Positions 3,508-47,256 of a stretch of 47,256 nt of DNA are shown piece by piece. The DNA comes from a bacterium (GTDB lineage: Bacteria; Patescibacteriota; CPR2; UBA1875; CAIMLA01). How positions within the stretch are numbered: position 1 is the stretch's first letter; each line of letters opens with the position of its first letter. The position numbers and the translations under genes were made by a program. Under the pieces are notes generated by a model. The model was not told the origin of the DNA and searched no databases. It saw only the letters and a program-made list of their open reading frames with translations. The stretch covers positions 1 through 47,256 of the forward strand of contig JBAXEY010000003.1 of assembly GCA_037140175.1 (NCBI GenBank), in the 5' to 3' direction.

Positions 3508-4014
3508 ATGAAAAAGATCTTAGAGGTCCCACACCGAATTCAATACTATGATATCGATGATGATAAATGGCAGGGTCGATCGTGTGGCATTGTCTCCTTA
3601 TCTATGATTCTGGAATATTATGGTATCCAGGTTGATATAGATGAGTTAATCAAGCTAGGGTTAAAAAAAGACGGATACATCGATAAAATTGGTTGGAAGC
3701 ATCAAATAATTTGTGATTTAGCAAAGCATTATGGGCTGGTGGCCTATCGGACCGAGGACGATACGGTCGACAGTCTAATGGAAGCTCTTGAAAAGGATGA
3801 GCCAGTTATTATCTCGATCCACAAAAATTTTGATCTAGAAAACGGTGGACACTTAACGGTTCTAAACGGCTATTTTGTTTCAAACCAAGAGCTTCTGGGT
3901 TTCTATGTGAATGATCCAGTCGGGGCATCATATAAGCATCAAAATCAGTTTATCGAGATTGATAAGTTTCTTAATGGCTGGAAAAAGCGAGCTATTTATG
4001 TTAAAAAAGTATGA
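3508..4014 (+). CDS. C39-family papain-like peptidase
   Basis: Q..SCGIVSLSMIL, GHLTVLNG and NDP motifs. Confidence 0.8.
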   Translation: MKKILEVPHRIQYYDIDDDKWQGRSCGIVSLSMILEYYGIQVDIDELIKLGLKKDGYIDKIGWKHQIICDLAKHYGLVAYRTEDDTVDSLMEALEKDEPVIISIHKNFDLENGGHLTVLNGYFVSNQELLGFYVNDPVGASYKHQNQFIEIDKFLNGWKKRAIYVKKV

Positions 4015-6422
4015 GAATGACTAAATATAATCACAAAAGGATAGAAGAGAAGTGGCAGGAAATATGGGCCAAAACAAAGCTATATCAGGTAGATTTAGAG
4101 AAAGCGGATAAGCCTTTTTACAATCTAATGATGTTCCCATATCCAAGTGGTGAATACCTTCATCTAGGACACGGGTATTCGTACTCCGGAGCAGATGTTT
4201 ATGGTCGCTATATAAGGCTATCAGGCAAAGATGTCTTTGAGCCGATTGGTTATGATTCCTTTGGCTTGCCTGCAGAAAATTATGCTATTAAAGCAGGTGT
4301 TCATCCTAAGGTTAGCATCGCCAAGAATATAGAGATAGCTAGAGAGCAACTAAAATCATTTGGTTGTATGTTTGATTTTGAAAAGGAAGTAATCACAAGT
4401 GATCCATCATATTACAAATGGACTCAATGGGTCTTCCTCAAACTATATGAGCAAGGTTTGGCATACCAGAAAGAATCTCCTGTAAACTGGTGTCCAAAAT
4501 GTAAAACCGTTCTGGCAAACGAGCAAGTAATATCGGGTAAATGTGAGCGTTGCGATAGTGAAGTAATTCAAAAAAAGCTTAAACAATGGTTCTTCAAAAC
4601 TACAAAATATGCCGAAAAGCTAATCAACGACCTTGACAATGTCGACTGGCCAGAATCATCCAAAGTAAAACAAAAAAACTGGATTGGGAAATCATCTGGT
4701 GTTGAGTTTGAGATGGAGATAGATGGTTTTGCCGAAAAGCTTGGTGTTTTTACCACGCGAATTGATACTGTATATGGTATGACTTATGTGGTCATTGCTC
4801 CCGAACACCCATTAGTTGAAAAAATTACGACAAAGGAATACGGGAAAGAGGTTAAAAATTATCAAAAAACAACTCAAAAATTAGCCGAAATAGAGCGCCA
4901 ATCAACAGAAAAAGAAAAAACGGGCGTGTTTACTGGAGCGTATGCCATTAATCCTTTCAACAAAAGAAAGATTCCGATCTGGGTCGCTGATTATGTTATT
5001 TCTTCGTACGGAACAGGAGCAGTTATGGCGGTTCCGGCTCACGATGAGCGTGATTTTGAATTTGCCAAAAAATTTGGTTTGGAAATAATCACATCTGTTA
5101 TACCTAAAGTGGCGAAAAAAGGGATAAAGGTTTTTGTTGAAAAAGGAGTTTTAGCCGAATCAGATCATTTTACGGGGCTAACATCAGACGAGGCCATAAA
5201 AAAAATGGCAGAATGGCTTAAGAAAAAAGGGATTGGGGACGAGAAAACTACTTATAGATTACGGGATTGGTCATTTTCAAGACAGAGATATTGGGGCGCG
5301 CCAATACCAATAGTATATTGCAATCAATGTGGGGCAATCCCTATACCAGAAAAAGATCTACCCGTCGAGCTTCCTGAGGTTAAAGAATTTCGACCAACAG
5401 GATTGGGAGAAGGGCCTTTGGCGACTGCGATTGATTTTGTGAATACAAAATGTCCAAAATGTGGCGAGCCGGCAAAGAGAGAAACAGATACTATGGACAC
5501 CTTCGTTGACTCAAGTTTTTACTTCATGAGATACCCAAATGCTAGAGATGATAACGAGATGATGAACAAAAATATTACTCAAAAATGGTTACCGATAGAT
5601 ATGTATATAGGTGGAGCTGAACACGTAACTATGCATCTTTTATATGCAAGATTTGTCACAAAAGCTTTCTTTGATGCTGGGCTTATAAATTTTGATGAGC
5701 CATTTATGAAGTTGCGCCACCAGGGGATGATTCTAGGGCCAGATGGTAAGAAAATGAGTAAATCAAAAGGTAATATCGTTGTTCCGGGTGAAGTTATGAA
5801 AGAGGCAGGGGCGGATGCATTTCGTACTTACATCTTATTTATGGGCCAATTCGAAGACGGAGGTCCCTGGAATTCGAGTGGACTTTCTGGCATAGTTCGA
5901 TTCCTGGAAAAAGTTTGGCGACTATTTGACGGCGTAATAGATGAGAATAATCCTGAAATTGAGATTGAAAGAATTCTAAATAAAACCATTAGGAAAGTAG
6001 GGCAAGATATCGAAGATTTTAAATTTAATACAGCAATTTCTTCATTAATGATCTTAGTGAATTCTCTGAGTGACAGAAAAGTACAAAATAAAAAATCACT
6101 CGAGATACTTACTATATTAATTTCACCTTTTGCGCCCCATCTAGCAGAGGAGCTTTGGGAGAAGCTAGGTAACACAGAGAGCATTTTTGATGGTGTCTGG
6201 CCAAGATTCGATAAAGGCTTAATAGGAGATACAATCATAACTATGGCGGTCCAAATAAATGGCAAGGTACGTGATCAAATATTGGCAACGCCAGGGTTAG
6301 GTCAGGAAGAAATATTAAAATTAGCAAAGGAGTCGGACCGAACAAAAAAGTATTTAGCAGGCGCAGAAATCACTAAAATAATATACATACAAGACAAGCT
6401 TTTGAGCCTTGTCTTAAAGTAA
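4011..6422 (+). CDS. leuS: Leucine--tRNA ligase
   Basis: MFPYPSG..HLGH, editing motif GTGAVMAVPAHD, KMSKS. Confidence 0.97.
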   Translation: MRMTKYNHKRIEEKWQEIWAKTKLYQVDLEKADKPFYNLMMFPYPSGEYLHLGHGYSYSGADVYGRYIRLSGKDVFEPIGYDSFGLPAENYAIKAGVHPKVSIAKNIEIAREQLKSFGCMFDFEKEVITSDPSYYKWTQWVFLKLYEQGLAYQKESPVNWCPKCKTVLANEQVISGKCERCDSEVIQKKLKQWFFKTTKYAEKLINDLDNVDWPESSKVKQKNWIGKSSGVEFEMEIDGFAEKLGVFTTRIDTVYGMTYVVIAPEHPLVEKITTKEYGKEVKNYQKTTQKLAEIERQSTEKEKTGVFTGAYAINPFNKRKIPIWVADYVISSYGTGAVMAVPAHDERDFEFAKKFGLEIITSVIPKVAKKGIKVFVEKGVLAESDHFTGLTSDEAIKKMAEWLKKKGIGDEKTTYRLRDWSFSRQRYWGAPIPIVYCNQCGAIPIPEKDLPVELPEVKEFRPTGLGEGPLATAIDFVNTKCPKCGEPAKRETDTMDTFVDSSFYFMRYPNARDDNEMMNKNITQKWLPIDMYIGGAEHVTMHLLYARFVTKAFFDAGLINFDEPFMKLRHQGMILGPDGKKMSKSKGNIVVPGEVMKEAGADAFRTYILFMGQFEDGGPWNSSGLSGIVRFLEKVWRLFDGVIDENNPEIEIERILNKTIRKVGQDIEDFKFNTAISSLMILVNSLSDRKVQNKKSLEILTILISPFAPHLAEELWEKLGNTESIFDGVWPRFDKGLIGDTIITMAVQINGKVRDQILATPGLGQEEILKLAKESDRTKKYLAGAEITKIIYIQDKLLSLVLK

Positions 6423-7185: not shown

Positions 7186-7665
7186 ATGGCATCCAATCGG
7201 CACCTTTCGAGAATAATTGCCTTCCAAACGCTATATGAACAGGAATTTATAGCAAAAAAAGTTCCTGGTCATGAGTCTGAGAGTCAGAAAACACTAGAAG
7301 AAATATTGGAGCGCAATTATCAGGAATTTGCTAAGGCCCTAGAGGGTCGAGAGTTTATTGACCAATTAGTTTGGGGAATACGGGAAAACAAGGACAAAAT
7401 AGATACAATTATTGTCCCAGCGGCCCCGGAGTGGCCAATTGAACAGATTGCCATGATTGACTTGATCATATTGAGAATGGGAATATTCGAACTTTTGTTT
7501 GCCAAGGAAGTCCCTCCTAAAGTGGCTATTAACGAAGCAGTTGAGCTGGCAAAAGCCTTTGGTGGACAAAATTCCTCGAAGTTTATTAATGGGGTGTTGG
7601 GTACTGTTTATAGGGCAAGCGATGTTTATAATCCCGACGACGATAAAAAACGCGAGAAAAAATGA
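7186..7665 (+). CDS. nusB: Transcription antitermination factor NusB
   Basis: [29 protein letters not shown]. Confidence 0.96.
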
Positions 7666-8354
7666 CAGACTCAGAAAGCCTAAAACAATTTTTAGAGAAA
7701 AACGACATAAAATATAACAACGAGCAGTTGTTGCTAACAGCACTTACTCATCGTTCATATTTAAACGAGCATCACAATATAAAAGAACACAATGAAAGAC
7801 TTGAGTTTTTGGGTGATGCGGTCTTAGAACTAGTCGTTACAGAATATTTATACAAGAAGTACTCTAACCCAGAAGGTGATCTAACAAACTGGCGAAGTGC
7901 TTTGGTAAAAACAGAAACGATTTCTGAAGTAGCCAAGGACCTGGACGTTGAGCAGTATATATTAATGAGTCGAGGTGAGGCAAAGAGCCTTGGCCGTAGT
8001 CGACAATTAATTTTGGCAAATGCTTTTGAAGCAATCGTAGGAAGTATCTACATTGACCAAGGCTTAGAAGAAGTCCAAAAGTTTATTCAAAAAAACTTGA
8101 TAGTAAAATTAGATAAAATTTTATCAGAGAAATCATATATTGACCCTAAGAGCTTATTTCAGGAACTAGTCCAAGACAAAGAAGGGATAACCCCCTGTTA
8201 TGAGGTTTTAGGGGAAGACGGTCCAGATCATGATAAAACATTTACGGTTGGCGTTTTTGTTGGCGAGACGATTTGGGGAGAAGGGGAAGGTCCTTCAAAA
8301 CAAGCCGCTCAAGCCTCGGCCGCAATAAAGGCTATAGAAAAGTATAATAAATAA
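7662..8354 (+). CDS. rnc: Ribonuclease III
   Basis: [19 protein letters not shown] and a C-terminal dsRBD. Confidence 0.97.
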
Positions 8355-12577: not shown

Positions 12578-13249
12578 ATGAAAATACGCATTATAACTTT
12601 ATTCCCAGAAATGTTTCGTGGTCCGTTTTCTTGTAGCATCTTAGGGAGAGCACAAGAAAAAGGCACCATTGAGATAGAATATATTAATTTACGCGATTTC
12701 GGAGTTGGCCCCAGACGTCAAATTGATGATACACCTTATGGAGGCGGTCCGGGAATGATTATAAAGGTTGATGTGATGGCCAAAGCAATCGAATCTGCCA
12801 AAAAAAACTTTCAACTGGCCCAAACAGTTTTGTTGACACCTCAAGGGAAAGTTTTTAACCAGGAGACTGCAACCAATTTTGCTGCGGAAAAAGAGATTAT
12901 CTTTATCTGTGGACACTATGAGGGCTTTGATGAAAGAATTAGGACTATGGTTGATCATGAAGTATCAATTGGTAAATATATCCTGACGGGTGGTGAAATC
13001 CCAGCGATGGTTATAGTCGATAGTATCAGCAGGTTGGTGCCAGGAGTGCTTGGCCAAGATAGTTCGAGCGTCTCGGAGTCATTCTCTGCCGACCACTTGC
13101 TCGAATACCCTCAATACACGAGGCCAGATGACTACAACGGTCAAAAAGTACCGAACATATTAAAATCAGGCAATCACCACGAGATTGAAAACTGGAGAGC
13201 ATCACAGGCATCAATAAAAAGCAAAAAATATAAAAAAATTGATGGTTGA
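12578..13249 (+). CDS. trmD: tRNA (guanine-N1)-methyltransferase
   Basis: DDTPYGGGPGM, CGHYEGFDER, GGEIPA, LEYPQYTRP. Confidence 0.97.
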   Translation: MKIRIITLFPEMFRGPFSCSILGRAQEKGTIEIEYINLRDFGVGPRRQIDDTPYGGGPGMIIKVDVMAKAIESAKKNFQLAQTVLLTPQGKVFNQETATNFAAEKEIIFICGHYEGFDERIRTMVDHEVSIGKYILTGGEIPAMVIVDSISRLVPGVLGQDSSSVSESFSADHLLEYPQYTRPDDYNGQKVPNILKSGNHHEIENWRASQASIKSKKYKKIDG

Positions 13250-24138: not shown

Positions 24139-24225
24139 TGGTGCCCGAGGCGGGACTCGAACCCGCAAGATGTTACCATCAACGGATTTTAAGTCCGTCG
24201 CGTATACCAATTCCGCCACCCGGGC
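24139..24225 (-). tRNA. tRNA-Leu(TAA)
   Basis: GCCCGGGTGGCGGAATTGG...anticodon loop CTTAAAA, long variable arm, GGTTCGAGTCC, CCA. Confidence 0.95.
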
Positions 24226-24294
24226 TCTAGGGCAGACATCTCTGGTATTATCCAGTGCTACTGTTTTTTAAGCTTGCTTTAGCGAAAATATATT

Positions 24295-24369
24295 TGGAGG
24301 CCTCGCCCGGAATTGAACCGGGGTGAACGGTTTTGCAGACCGCTGCGTAAACCACTCCGCCACGAGGCC
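24295..24369 (-). tRNA. tRNA-Cys(GCA)
   Basis: GGCCTCGTGGCGGAGTGG...CTGCAAA...TTCAATT...TCCA. Confidence 0.95.
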
Positions 24370-24386
24370 GGGAAACTATAATATAT

Positions 24387-24462
24387 TGGAGCGAGAGACG
24401 GGGTTCGAACCCGCGACCTCAACCTTGGCAAGGTTGCGCTCTACCAGCTAAGCTACTCTCGC
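24387..24462 (-). tRNA. tRNA-Gly(GCC)
   Basis: GCGAGAGTAGCTTAG...TTGCCAA...GGTTCGAACCC...TCCA. Confidence 0.95.
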
Positions 24463-24520
24463 TCTAGTTTATTTCACCGAGTAAAATGTAAGGTATAAGC
24501 CTACATTTGATAAGGCGAAA

Positions 24521-24596
<76 letters not shown>

Positions 24597-24684
24597 GCAT
24601 TAACTTTCTCTAAAGCATTTTAAATATAACCTCAAATACAATCAATTGGAATACTTTACCTTTTAGTGCAATGAATTTGTCAAA

Positions 24685-24761
24685 TGGTGGGCGATGGGGG
24701 ATTCGAACCCGCGACCTCCTCGGTGTAAACGAGATGCTCTAACCAGCTGAGCTAATCGCCC
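24685..24761 (-). tRNA. tRNA-Val(TAC)
   Basis: GGGCGATTAGCTCAG...TTTACAC...GGTTCGAATCC...ACCA. Confidence 0.93.
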
Positions 24762-24769
24762 TTGTTTTT

Positions 24770-24857
24770 TGGTGGCTGGGTAAGTCTAATCCCAAGCCGT
24801 CAGATCACTGAAAAATATTTAATCTAGTCCGCGCTGACAGTCTGGGACTGCCCTGGC
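24770..24857 (-). ncRNA. Putative non-tRNA structured RNA ending in ACCA
   Basis: 16-position stem (24834-24849 with 24788-24803) in which 15 positions pair on the - strand; 3' end GCCACCA. Confidence 0.4.
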
Positions 24858-24861
24858 GTAT

Positions 24862-24948
24862 TGGTGCGGACGAGAGGACTCGAACCTCCAAGGTCTTTCG
24901 ACCACTAGTACCTCATACTAGCGCGTATACCAATTCCGCCACGTCCGC
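24862..24948 (-). tRNA. tRNA-Leu(GAG)
   Basis: GCGGACGTGGCGGAATTGG...ATGAGGT loop, variable arm GGTCGAAAGACC, CCA. Confidence 0.95.
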
Positions 24949-44477: not shown

Positions 44478-45413
44478 ATGAACACGTTGTATGTCTTTAT
44501 CGCGATAGCCTTAGTGGCTATGGCAATCATCTTTGAACTTATTGAGCGGGTAGCTAAGCTTTCTATGCGTAGTTTTTTTATTGTTTTATCTGGTGCTTTT
44601 GTCGGGCTAGTGATGGGGGCGCTTTTGACTTTCCCATTAAGCAAAACTCCTGGAAATTTGGGTGAATGGCTTCCTCTGGCCTGCACTGCATTTTTGGTTT
44701 TTGGTTTTGTGACATTTTTCTGGCAACAAAAAGAAGCAGCCAATAAATGGCTTGACGCAATCAATAAATTCTTTACTATCTTCAAAAATAGCAACAATCA
44801 ACCCCACCAAATTAGCGGTGAAGCAATTGTTGATACCTCTGTTTTGATTGATGGCAGGATCTTGGATATTGCCAAAAGTGGCTTTTGGCAATATAAAATT
44901 ATTATCCCAAGGTTTATTTTGGCGGAGCTTCAAACAATTGCTGACTCGACCGACTCGGAGAGAAGATCCAAAGGCAGACGAGGCCTCGACGTTATCGAGT
45001 CTTTGAGAAAAACCAAAGGAATCAAGGTTGAAGTAATTAGCACTGATGTTGTAGATATTAAGGAAGTGGATGCCAAATTGGTCGCCATTACAAAAAAACT
45101 GGATTGTTATCTTTTGACGACTGACTATAACCTAAATAAAGTTGCCAAAGCGGAGGGGCTAAAAGTACTAAATATTAATGAACTTGCTCAAGGTTTGAGG
45201 CCGGTAATTTTACCAGGGGAAGAGTTAGAAATAAACATAGTGCATTTAGGCAAAGAAAAAACCCAAGGAGTCGGCTATTTGCCAGACGGCACGATGATAG
45301 TTGTAGAAAAAGGTGGGCACATGATCGATAAAAAAGTTAAGGTAAAAATTACTCGAACATTGCAAACCGCTGCGGGTAAGATGTTTTTTTCAAAGATTGT
45401 CGATGATAAATAA
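44478..45413 (+). CDS. Membrane PIN/TRAM domain protein (YacL-like)
   Basis: TMs, DTSVLIDGRI, T.DYNLNKVA, QGVGYL.DGTMIVVE. Confidence 0.92.
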   Translation: MNTLYVFIAIALVAMAIIFELIERVAKLSMRSFFIVLSGAFVGLVMGALLTFPLSKTPGNLGEWLPLACTAFLVFGFVTFFWQQKEAANKWLDAINKFFTIFKNSNNQPHQISGEAIVDTSVLIDGRILDIAKSGFWQYKIIIPRFILAELQTIADSTDSERRSKGRRGLDVIESLRKTKGIKVEVISTDVVDIKEVDAKLVAITKKLDCYLLTTDYNLNKVAKAEGLKVLNINELAQGLRPVILPGEELEINIVHLGKEKTQGVGYLPDGTMIVVEKGGHMIDKKVKVKITRTLQTAAGKMFFSKIVDDK

Positions 45414-46302
45414 TATACAAAAGAATGTCATTCTTGCACCATATACAACATATCGGATTGGAGGTAAAGCTGATTATTTTTTTATAGCAAAGACCAAGCA
45501 AGCCTTGATTAAGGTATTGGAGTGGGCGAAGGATGAAAGTGTGCCTTATGTCATAATCGGAGGGGGGAGCAATCTTTTAATCTCAGACGCAGGTTTTCGT
45601 GGGCTTGTTATCCTAAATCGGTTAAATCAATACTCAATAACCGACACCTCTGTAACAGTAGAAAGTGGGATGATTTTATCAGCCCTGGCTCGGAAAACGG
45701 TCGATCTAGGGTTAAGTGGTTTTGATTTTGCAGTGAATATCCCAGGTACTGTTGGTGGGGCGGTCGTCGGTAATGCGGGAGCTTATGGGACTGAGACCTC
45801 TAATTCATTTGTCTCAGCTCTTGTTTGGTCCGCCAAAGATGGCCAAAATAAATACGAGAAAGATGATATGAAATTTTCATACCGATCATCAGCCCTGAAA
45901 AACTGTCATGAAACAGTTTTAATCGAAGCAGAATTTCGAATGCAAAGAGGGGACAGAGAATTGATGCTGGAGAAAGCTGTAAGTGATTTAGAGAAAAGAA
46001 AACATGACTACCGAGGCTATTCCTGCGGTAGTTATTTCAAAAATCCGACTGATAAGAAAATAAAGATAAACAAAGAGACTATCGACAATCCTTCGGCTGG
46101 ATATTTGATTGATAGCCTAGGTTTAAAGGGATTGTTTGTTGGTGGAGCCAGAGTCAGTAAAAATCATGCCAATGTTATCGTGAACGAAAACAAGGCATCC
46201 GCAAAAGACATTATAGACCTTGAGAAGTTAATTATTAAAAAAGTCAAAAAGAGATACGATGTCGAGATACAACCAGAAGTGACAAAAATAGGCATATTTT
46301 AG
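45403..46302 (+). CDS. murB: UDP-N-acetylmuramate dehydrogenase
   Basis: T.RIGG.A, GGGSNLL, IPGTVGGA..GNAGAYG, GSYFKNP, HAN. Confidence 0.96.
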   Translation: MINNIQKNVILAPYTTYRIGGKADYFFIAKTKQALIKVLEWAKDESVPYVIIGGGSNLLISDAGFRGLVILNRLNQYSITDTSVTVESGMILSALARKTVDLGLSGFDFAVNIPGTVGGAVVGNAGAYGTETSNSFVSALVWSAKDGQNKYEKDDMKFSYRSSALKNCHETVLIEAEFRMQRGDRELMLEKAVSDLEKRKHDYRGYSCGSYFKNPTDKKIKINKETIDNPSAGYLIDSLGLKGLFVGGARVSKNHANVIVNENKASAKDIIDLEKLIIKKVKKRYDVEIQPEVTKIGIF

Positions 46303-46324: not shown

Positions 46325-46350
46325 AAAAAAGGTGCCAATTGGCACACTCT
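46325..46350 (-). terminator. Intrinsic terminator of the orphan transcript
   Basis: GTGCC-AATT-GGCAC followed by CTTTTTT on the - strand. Confidence 0.7.
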
Positions 46351-46418
46351 ATTTATAATTACTTAAATATTTATTTAATAGGGTTATGACAAAGCAAGGT
46401 TGGTAAAGTATGTTGGGA

Positions 46419-46451
46419 GGGCGGAGCGCACAGAATGTGTGCGCTCCGCCC
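46419..46451. repeat. 14-bp perfect GC-rich hairpin
   Basis: GGGCGGAGCGCACA-GAATG-TGTGCGCTCCGCCC. Confidence 0.9.
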
Positions 46452-46469
46452 GATGCTCACGCCTAACGA

Positions 46470-47015
46470 CTAGGCTTTCGCGCGCGACCTCTTGCGAGCG
46501 TTCTTGGTCTTGCCACCGGTGGGAGCCGGCTTGGCTCCGTTCGAGCCCTTCTCGGGCCCGGCCGTTGAGGTGGCGAGCTTCCTCGCCTTCTGGGCGGCTT
46601 TGCGAGCATCCAGGGTCTGCGGATCGGCCTTGGCTCTCTGGGGCCGGTCGTGGTTGCGAAGAACCTTCACCGCCTCAGCGAGGACCATGGGATTGAGGTA
46701 CCTTTCGGCGCCATCGACCCCGCGCTCCCGACAGAGGTAGAATGCCACCTCGGCAAGGAACCGTCGCGTCTGCTCGAAGTTGCCGAGCGCGACTTCCTTT
46801 CTCACTCCCCAGAGGTGGCAGTGGTAGGCCTTCAGTTTCATGATCTTGTCGGTTACGAAGCCGATCCTGACCCGGCTCTGGTTGGCCGTGAAGACCAGCC
46901 AAGCCTCGAGGCAGCCCATCAAGGCCTCCTCGGTGTCGACTCCGAGGGCCTCCTCGAACTCGAGGTAGGTCCGTGCGTTCGGCCCGAAGGCCTCGTTGGC
47001 GGTGGACTCGGACAT
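46470..47015 (-). CDS. GC-rich orphan protein with basic C-terminal tail
   Basis: SD AAGGAG before the ATG at 47015; the GC-rich block coincides with the ORF limits. Confidence 0.7.
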   Translation of the reverse strand: MSESTANEAFGPNARTYLEFEEALGVDTEEALMGCLEAWLVFTANQSRVRIGFVTDKIMKLKAYHCHLWGVRKEVALGNFEQTRRFLAEVAFYLCRERGVDGAERYLNPMVLAEAVKVLRNHDRPQRAKADPQTLDARKAAQKARKLATSTAGPEKGSNGAKPAPTGGKTKNARKRSRAKA

Positions 47016-47172
47016 TTTCGGCTCCTTTTTCATGGTTTTAAAACCGTTAACATATACTTTAAGGCTTTCGATGCACGACTATCTTTCGATAGAGTTACCT
47101 GAGCCTTTGATAACCTTGCTTTGTCAATGAACTTGGTACTTCGAAAGAGTATAATTCTCTCGAACAGCGAAT

Positions 47173-47201
47173 ATAATAACACAAAAGAAATAGAAAGTCA
47201 A
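47173..47201 (-). promoter_or_regulatory. Sigma70 promoter driving the orphan unit
   Basis: TTGACT-17 nt-TATTAT on the - strand. Confidence 0.65.
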
Positions 47202-47256
47202 TACTATTATCTAGGATGTGTATAGCTGTAATAGCTCAACAAACAAGAAGCCGCTC

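Follow-up and report, generated by a model that had tools for sequence, protein, structure and literature searches.

An orphan protein gene in a candidate rRNA-precursor-like expression cassette of a CPR2 bacterium (Patescibacteriota)

This report concerns a cassette of about 880 nt in the genome of an uncultured bacterium of the CPR2 lineage of Patescibacteriota (GenBank assembly GCA_037140175.1, here G000). The stretch of DNA analyzed, referred to as the window, is 47,256 nt long and is the entire contig C3 (JBAXEY010000003.1) of this assembly, which comprises 874 kb in 72 contigs with 39% GC and an estimated completeness of 99.6%. The cassette lies in the final kilobase of C3, on the - strand. 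It is a self-contained unit that runs from a promoter to a terminator and carries one protein gene (Table 1). Its layout resembles that of a 16S rRNA precursor, with a hairpin, a boxA-like motif and two complementary arms that enclose the whole open reading frame (ORF), and suggests that the mRNA is synthesized and protected in the manner of a stable RNA. A sequence-only reading of the window had listed these elements, and all of them were found at the positions it gave, on the - strand.

C4 begins with the last 55 bases of C3, and a metagenome contig, L007, 100% identical to the window, spans the junction of the two contigs, so that the upstream context of the cassette is known. The gene order along the - strand is a class A penicillin-binding protein (PBP) gene, about 350 nt of conserved non-coding DNA, the cassette, and then the convergent murB gene, tail-to-tail with the cassette. 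A PIN-TRAM gene lies beyond murB.

Table 1. Coordinates of the cassette parts and of other genes discussed, numbered along the window
Feature	Position	Strand	Description
Promoter	47201-47173	-	TTGACT, 17-nt spacer, TATTAT with extended -10 TG; 10 of 12 consensus positions
5'-proximal hairpin	47164-47140	-	9 bp, 7-nt loop, a few nt past the predicted start site
boxA-like element GTTCATTGACAA	47132-47121	-	reads GCTCATTGACAA in L004; final 6 nt inside the 5' arm
5' (leader) arm TGACAAAGCAAGGTT	47126-47112	-	exact 15-nt complement of 46387-46401
Leader stem AAGGCU/AGCCUU	47107-47102 with 47066-47061	-	encloses the GNRA hairpin
GNRA hairpin CUAUC-GAAA-GAUAG	47092-47079	-	inside the leader stem
Shine-Dalgarno sequence AGGAG	47022-47026	-	6 nt before the ATG at 47015
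ORF	47015-46470	-	181 aa
3' hairpin	46451-46419	-	14 bp, G+C-rich, no U-tract, 18 nt past the stop codon
3' (trailer) arm AACCUUGCUUUGUCA	46401-46387	-	complement of the leader arm
Intrinsic terminator GUGCC-AAUU-GGCAC	46345-46325	-	stem 46345-46332, then CTTTTTTGTT U-run; shared tail-to-tail with murB
murB	45397-46302	+	
nusB	7207-7614		
rnc	7719-8108		
nusA	from 40342		

Six related loci were compared: the window (= L007), a genome of the same genus (L004), and the metagenome contigs L008, L009, L010 and L011. The 3' hairpin, the trailer arm and the terminator are common to all six loci, with murB downstream in every one of them. The promoter, the 5'-proximal hairpin, the boxA-like motif and the leader arm are common to all 4 loci that extend far enough upstream. 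The upstream conservation starts at the -35 hexamer, and L008 and L011 have other upstream contexts; the unit is therefore taken to run from the promoter to the terminator. In the non-coding flanks of the ORF, about 1 in 10 positions differs between the window and L004, a pair whose synonymous sites are close to saturation. Judged from these alignments, the flanks are under strong constraint and are far more conserved than the ORF.

Comparison with the rRNA operon (rrn) of the lineage provides the main clue to the design of the cassette. The sole full-length 16S gene of the assembly, on C44 (positions 897-2345; L012), was considered as the host's own and set aside as probably mis-binned. The 16S genes of three family members share about 91% identity among themselves, and the C44 gene has about 72% identity to them; the C44 leader contains no boxA resembling the cassette motif and is not alignable with the leaders of these members. 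The true rrn start, reached through a search of family genomes for GTTCWTTGACA, lies on the - strand of C52. Its promoter (C52:651-623) reads TTGACT-17-TATTAT with TG, and thus has the hexamers, spacer length and TG of the cassette promoter. It is followed by a hairpin (ACGCAUAAA...UUUAUGCGU) and, three nt on, by the boxA GTTCTTTGACAG. The 5' end of the 16S lies about 110 nt past this boxA, and the 16S runs off the contig. The cassette motif GTTCATTGACAA equals the rrn boxA at 10 of 12 positions; within an 11-nt core, position 5 alone differs. Matches to the rrn boxA with at most 2 mismatches are expected 0.009 times per 150 nt. In two relatives, G007 and G003, boxA is contained in the 5' strand of the helix formed by the 16S leader and trailer, and the cassette motif overlaps the leader arm in the same manner. 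The motif begins seven nt past the 5'-proximal hairpin, which is boxB-like by its position and could serve as a 5' stabilizer.

The cassette promoter is one of 7 promoter-like sites in a region of 1057 nt, where 0.7 would be expected, and it is kept in L004, L008 and L011. A second promoter, starting from the TTGACA within the boxA-like motif, was considered and rejected, as no -10-like hexamer is found 16-18 nt downstream.

Exact matches to GTTCWTTGACA number 24 in 11 family genomes, compared with 14 for the reversed control, and 16 of the 24 fall inside long ORFs. The 8 non-coding matches are five rrn leaders, this cassette, a site within a tmRNA-like gene (G004), and the 5' untranslated region (UTR) of a metallophosphoesterase gene in G002, which belongs to another genus of the family. 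At the last site (G002:C1, about 3633-5100, - strand; L032, L054) the hairpin CCACCAC-GAA-GUGGUG is followed after 10 nt by the exact family boxA GTTCTTTGACAG, 19 nt before the start codon of a gene for a 474-aa metallophosphoesterase-domain protein. This gene has 52% GC in a region of 44% GC, and a hairpin past its stop codon shares GCTCCGCCC(C)TCC with the 3' hairpin of the cassette. Leaders of this kind, with a boxA in front of a protein gene, are therefore found elsewhere in the family too.

The RNA structure of the cassette was evaluated in an alignment of four sequences (A2), with 57 pairs specified in 7 helices. Pairing holds in 98.2% of the cells in these columns and falls to 36-48% if the partners are offset by 1-3 columns. 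Double-sided changes occur in three pairs; 3 of 500 shuffles reach this number. In the 5'-proximal hairpin, one-sided changes that preserve the pairing affect 2 of the 9 pairs (G.U to A-U in L008; G-C to G.U in L004). The GNRA hairpin shows one double compensatory change in L004, from C-G to U-A, and there its loop changes from GAAA to GCAA; the outer leader stem keeps 5 of its 6 pairs in all 4 loci. In the 3' hairpin, two pairs are doubly compensated in L008, and a C-G pair becomes U.G in L004 and L011. The one-sided changes are of the G-C/G.U/A-U kind, and the wobble pairs fit only an RNA read from the - strand. Because of these compensatory or wobble changes, the three local hairpins can be assigned to RNA structures on the - strand. 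The 3' hairpin is likely to be a barrier against 3' exonucleases. No Rfam family covers the locus, either at the gathering threshold or at E <= 10.

The long-range helix between the arms, with 15 exact pairs, is present in both the minimum free energy (MFE) and the centroid fold of the 842-nt transcript (z = -10.96 against 20 shuffles). Its arms are unchanged in every locus that covers them (4 of 4 for the 5' arm, 6 of 6 for the 3' arm), and the 15-mer has only these two exact occurrences in the 874-kb genome. The arms sit in the UTRs, with 96 nt between the 5' arm and the start codon and 68 nt between the stop codon and the 3' arm; as both lie outside the translated region, ribosomes would not open the helix.

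The ORF between the arms is 62-70% GC in a genome of 39% GC and forms the strongest GC island of the assembly. This is the most striking feature of the cassette, and it was not mentioned in the sequence-only reading. The GC content at third codon positions (GC3) is 0.84 in the window ORF, against 0.365 across 345 long ORFs of the genome, and it stays at 0.72-0.84 in all six loci. The GC enrichment is thus kept up at synonymous sites and does not represent the fading trace of a recent transfer. The pairwise ratio of nonsynonymous to synonymous substitution rates (dN/dS) is about 0.2-0.3 for the whole ORF and 0.07-0.2 in the C-terminal 70 residues, with dS of 0.3 for L010 versus L011 and of 0.6-1.3 for comparisons within the window type and across the two types of product described below. 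These rates indicate that the ORF is a real gene under purifying selection. The alternative ATG at 47033 is not kept in L004. Horizontal transfer from a high-GC donor was also considered as the cause of the GC island and appears unlikely, since GC3 remains at 0.72-0.84 with dS as high as 1.3; the native AT-rich UTRs and the lack of a homolog outside a small family also speak against it. The RNA of the ORF alone folds somewhat better than its shuffles (z = -2.3 in the window and -5.2 in L011).

The predicted product consists of an orphan helical domain (about residues 12-121) and a conserved Lys/Arg-rich tail. It has no family match in Pfam, PHROGs or NCBIfam. The best match in a sequence profile search of the PDB has E = 0.08, Foldseek gave 0 matches in the PDB at E <= 0.001, a wide VIA-align search returned generic helical bundles only (best Z = 5.5), and the ESM Atlas gave nothing usable. 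Only one of five AlphaFold models is confident (mean pLDDT, the predicted local distance difference score, of 74.8 against 45-50 for the rest), and statements on the fold are weak for this reason. The protein family is tiny, with 6 proteins in the first search and 8 by profile search; among 1.84 billion representatives there are 4 matches, one of which (P0007, a 710-aa repeat protein) is probably spurious. Two payload types can be distinguished, the window type and the L010/L011 type. Their N-terminal 110 residues are 18% identical, while the tail is 73% identical. The leader, the first residues (MSD/E) and the basic C-terminal 70 residues are common to both types, and the more distant relatives P0008 and P0009 resemble the L010/L011 type.

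Taken together, we read the cassette, with middling confidence, as an expression module built on the plan of the lineage's 16S rRNA precursor, with the following Nus and RNase III steps proposed. A strong rrn-type promoter would start a transcript with the hairpin as its first element. The boxA-like sequence would follow, its 3' half forming the start of the 15-nt leader arm. A complex of the NusB/S10/NusA type would recognize this sequence and hold the leader at the polymerase until the trailer emerges, as has been proposed for rRNA. The trailer arm, made after the structured 96-nt leader, the ORF and the 3' hairpin, would then pair with the leader arm, leaving the coding region looped. According to the part of PMC2800207 relied on here, NusB:NusE binds single-stranded boxA; closure of the helix would therefore bury half of the motif and might release the factors shortly before the terminator. 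Transcription would stop at this weak intrinsic terminator, 41 nt past the trailer arm. RNase III would cut the helix as it does in pre-rRNA, and 3' exonucleases would halt at the G+C-rich hairpin, giving an end-protected, long-lived mRNA. The high GC3 would leave few A/U-rich single-stranded sites for nucleases, which would serve the same end as the protection of the termini. The anatomy, its conservation, the local hairpins, the rrn parallels and the coding status of the ORF are observed; from them we infer the pairing of the arms in vivo, the loading of Nus factors, cleavage, stability and the reason for the GC content.

Several observations weigh against this interpretation. First, neither Rho (PF07497) nor a SuhB-type inositol monophosphatase (PF00459) was found in the host genome, which is 99.6% complete. 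The usual rationale of boxA is protection from Rho. The sequence-only reading had proposed an antiterminated mRNA; in a host without Rho and SuhB, classical antitermination against Rho cannot be the purpose of the element. If it functions, it would therefore act in folding and helix formation or against pausing. The other known role of boxA is in RNA folding and helix formation, as described in parts of two publications (PMC10250234; PMC5725501), and it would suit a boxA located within a long-range helix; the former also describes leader-trailer helices as essential for 30S biogenesis, and the latter boxA elements that recruit Nus factors upstream of protein genes. Although Rho and SuhB were not detected, the host does encode nusA, nusB and rnc, and the family keeps its rrn boxA well conserved. 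The presence of these three genes in the window (Table 1), to which attention had been drawn earlier, holds true, but it provides no link to the cassette. They are single-copy housekeeping genes 6-39 kb away. Second, position 5 of the motif is A instead of U in all four loci, and the genome as a whole shows no enrichment of 12-mers that differ from the rrn boxA by at most 2 mismatches (109 versus 102 in the reversed control). Third, the host's own 16S trailer is unassembled, and its rrn helix is deduced from other genera of the family. Finally, all 15 core pairs of the long-range helix are invariant in the four sequences. There is no covariation among them, and the alignment therefore neither supports nor contradicts the pairing; compensatory changes in homologs occur in the local hairpins, and the 15-bp stem shows no change at all. 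With an invariant core, pairing in RNA is indistinguishable from other causes of arm conservation, and the UTR neighbors of the arms are also nearly invariant. The extensions of the stem across internal loops, which the sequence-only reading had included, are not maintained: AAAG/CUUU loses two pairs in each of L004 and L008, and GUU/AAC loses one pair in L004, none of them compensated. Without the extensions the stem has 15 bp; typical RNase III substrates are longer. Moreover, the genome contains 11 exact inverted-repeat pairs of at least 15 nt with arms 300-3000 nt apart, so that the length of the stem alone is not decisive.

The absence of covariation, the loss of the extensions and the eleven inverted repeats would also be expected if the complementarity had no helix function at all. 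In that case the flanks would act by local hairpins and protein sites, and the 15-nt match would be a by-product, for example of the same protein site present in both orientations. We consider this improbable. Two UTRs of about 150 nt each would contain an exact 15-nt complement by chance with a probability of about 2e-5 (150 x 150 / 4^15), both arms are invariant in every locus, and the helix dominates the MFE and centroid folds. In addition, the 5' arm scores as non-coding, with a longest frame of 55 aa, and the 104-aa frame over the 3' arm is ORF 46400-46696 (+), on the strand opposite to the GC-rich gene; no other pair of at least 15 nt has both arms in frames under 110 aa. As far as the genomic survey indicates, the arm pair is exceptional by its position in the UTRs of one gene and by its invariance, not by its length.

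The main alternative to the rRNA-precursor reading is a plain interaction between the 5' and 3' UTRs, as in Bacillus subtilis hbs. The loop would shield the ends from decay of the RNase J/Y type or tune translation, with no involvement of Nus factors or RNase III, and the boxA likeness and the promoter would be nothing but signals of strong expression. A helix of just 15 bp whose arms both lie in the UTRs, where translation would not open it, is consistent with such an interaction. So are the 5' hairpin and the G+C-rich 3' hairpin, both with covariation, and there is a precedent for contact between 5' and 3' UTRs that controls ribonuclease access (PMC5737220, in the portion relied on here). 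However, a plain UTR interaction leaves unexplained the 10/12 match to the rrn boxA and its same placement relative to the helix as in the family's rrn, as well as the identical promoter hexamers, spacer and TG. We regard this alternative as possible but rather doubtful. The architecture (promoter, hairpin, and boxA placed in a helix) is the part of the rRNA-precursor analogy that stands; recurrence in this genome, the stem extensions and circularization are unsupported, and antitermination as originally worded needs to be reconsidered. As a homology or analogy of architecture, it is supported by these comparisons more strongly than could have been known from the window alone.

Recurrence of the arrangement around other orphan genes, raised as a possibility in the sequence-only reading, was not borne out. 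No second cassette was found in the host genome, either in a scan of boxA-like motifs (10 of 80 matches in non-coding context) or among 78 long-range inverted-repeat pairs of at least 13 nt. Among 28 genomes of the order, the arm pair was found only in two genomes of the host's genus; single arm matches with 1 mismatch elsewhere in the order have no partner arm and no GC island. There is no DNA match to the cassette in the other 9 family genomes, and its pattern was not found in viral contigs. The cassette is thus known from one genus and close relatives in lake metagenomes.

Logan contigs from other lake-water runs (X3-X5) match the promoter, hairpin, boxA and arm. In two runs the contigs follow the cassette precisely up to 47112, on the inner side of the 5' arm, and continue into unlike sequence; other contigs branch at the promoter (the branch points noted are 47112, 47143 and 47185-47210). 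One low-depth contig has a different upstream hairpin that is still self-complementary. In related lineages the 5' module seems to stand in front of other sequence, and the divergence of two runs at 47112 together with the two payload types hints at modular exchange.

A further explanation places the inverted repeats at the level of DNA. They would be recombination sites of an invertible or exchangeable cassette, moving a promoter-less ORF segment relative to a fixed promoter, or would allow the payload to be swapped. The repeats do flank the ORF and most of the leader without the promoter, the same frame holds two very different N-terminal domains depending on the lineage, the divergence of contigs in two runs falls precisely at 47112, and a large serine recombinase is encoded elsewhere in the genome, on C21. 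We nevertheless consider this explanation very unlikely. All 6 assembled loci have the same orientation, and no strand-changing joint was found in the contigs of 4 runs, though contigs drop rare forms. No recombinase is adjacent to the cassette, the neighbors being MurB, the PIN-TRAM protein and the class A PBP, and the one on C21 is the only one seen. The wobble-type changes in the hairpins show selection on RNA, and the leader and the C-terminal tail, both inside the repeats, are conserved between the payload types.

The C21 region itself contains a perfect 136-nt inverted repeat (C21:11353-11488 and 13046-13181; L055). One copy is inside the 3' part of the gene for the large serine recombinase (Resolvase, Recombinase, Zn_ribbon_recom) at the contig end, and the second adjoins a GC-rich stretch upstream. 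This region could be an integrated element or an invertible segment.

The non-coding stretch of about 350 nt between the PBP gene and the cassette promoter (window 47202-47256 into C4:1-about 370; L007:5440-5790) hardly differs from its counterpart in L004; at this place L008 and L011 carry another sequence. It folds well (z = -4.35), ends in a terminator-like stem with a U-run, and has no match in Rfam. This stretch is a candidate small RNA gene. Six clustered tRNA genes lie at 24142-24948 on the - strand of the window.

In its widest form, the rRNA-precursor reading would make the cassette a portable "stable-RNA style" module for protein expression, composed of an rrn promoter, a hairpin, boxA in a leader-trailer helix, a 3' hairpin and a terminator. 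The payload would be co-regulated with rRNA and would differ across lineages, RNase III would free an end-paired and very long-lived mRNA, the ORF would be recoded to a GC3 of about 0.8 against A/U-directed nucleases, and the product would be a lineage-specific ribosome- or RNA-associated protein. We consider this full version unlikely. If the proposed scheme is true, the Nus/boxA system in a reduced genome without Rho and SuhB would be a device for forming long-range RNA helices that can be reused for mRNAs. The cassette would represent a natural design for stable, end-protected bacterial mRNAs, and RNA stability would be connected with the strong GC recoding that a single gene of this AT-rich genome shows at synonymous sites. 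The scope is narrow: one genus and its close relatives in lake metagenomes, an uncultured organism and an orphan protein.

Literature searches, with supplementary material outside their scope, found no description of a translated gene in the full layout of an rRNA precursor. Elements of the boxA type, leader-trailer helices and pairing between 5' and 3' UTRs are each already known. The bacterial pre-16S rRNA leader, as presented in part of PMC10250234 and in the family's own rrn, shares with the cassette a hairpin followed by a boxA-type motif that overlaps the 5' strand of an enclosing long-range helix. The likeness to the host rrn extends to the identical promoter hexamers, spacer and TG and to the motif with 10 of 12 boxA positions, and the host encodes nusB, nusA and rnc. 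Unlike the pre-16S leader, the cassette encloses a translated ORF of 181 codons with a Shine-Dalgarno sequence, its helix has 15 bp against about 28-35 bp in rrn, its arms beyond boxA share no sequence with the rrn helix, and it has its own terminator. The 5'-UTR boxA of protein genes, for example E. coli suhB, provides another parallel, as it is a boxA-type sequence in an mRNA leader (Baniulyte et al. 2017, PMC5725501). In the account of suhB given in the relevant part of that paper, boxA adjoins the Shine-Dalgarno sequence, represses translation and promotes Rho termination. In contrast, the boxA-like motif of the cassette is 106 nt upstream of the start codon and lies in a long-range helix, in a host without Rho or SuhB. 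B. subtilis hbs is similar to the cassette in being a small basic-protein gene with a structured 5' UTR, whose mRNA ends are proposed to interact and to control ribonuclease access (PMC5737220). Unlike the cassette, hbs as described in the part of that study relied on here lacks a boxA, an rrn-type layout and compositional recoding of its ORF, and the two proteins are unrelated by the searches made. The cassette combines these known kinds, namely boxA leaders on mRNAs, leader-trailer helices and UTR-UTR pairing, around an orphan payload.

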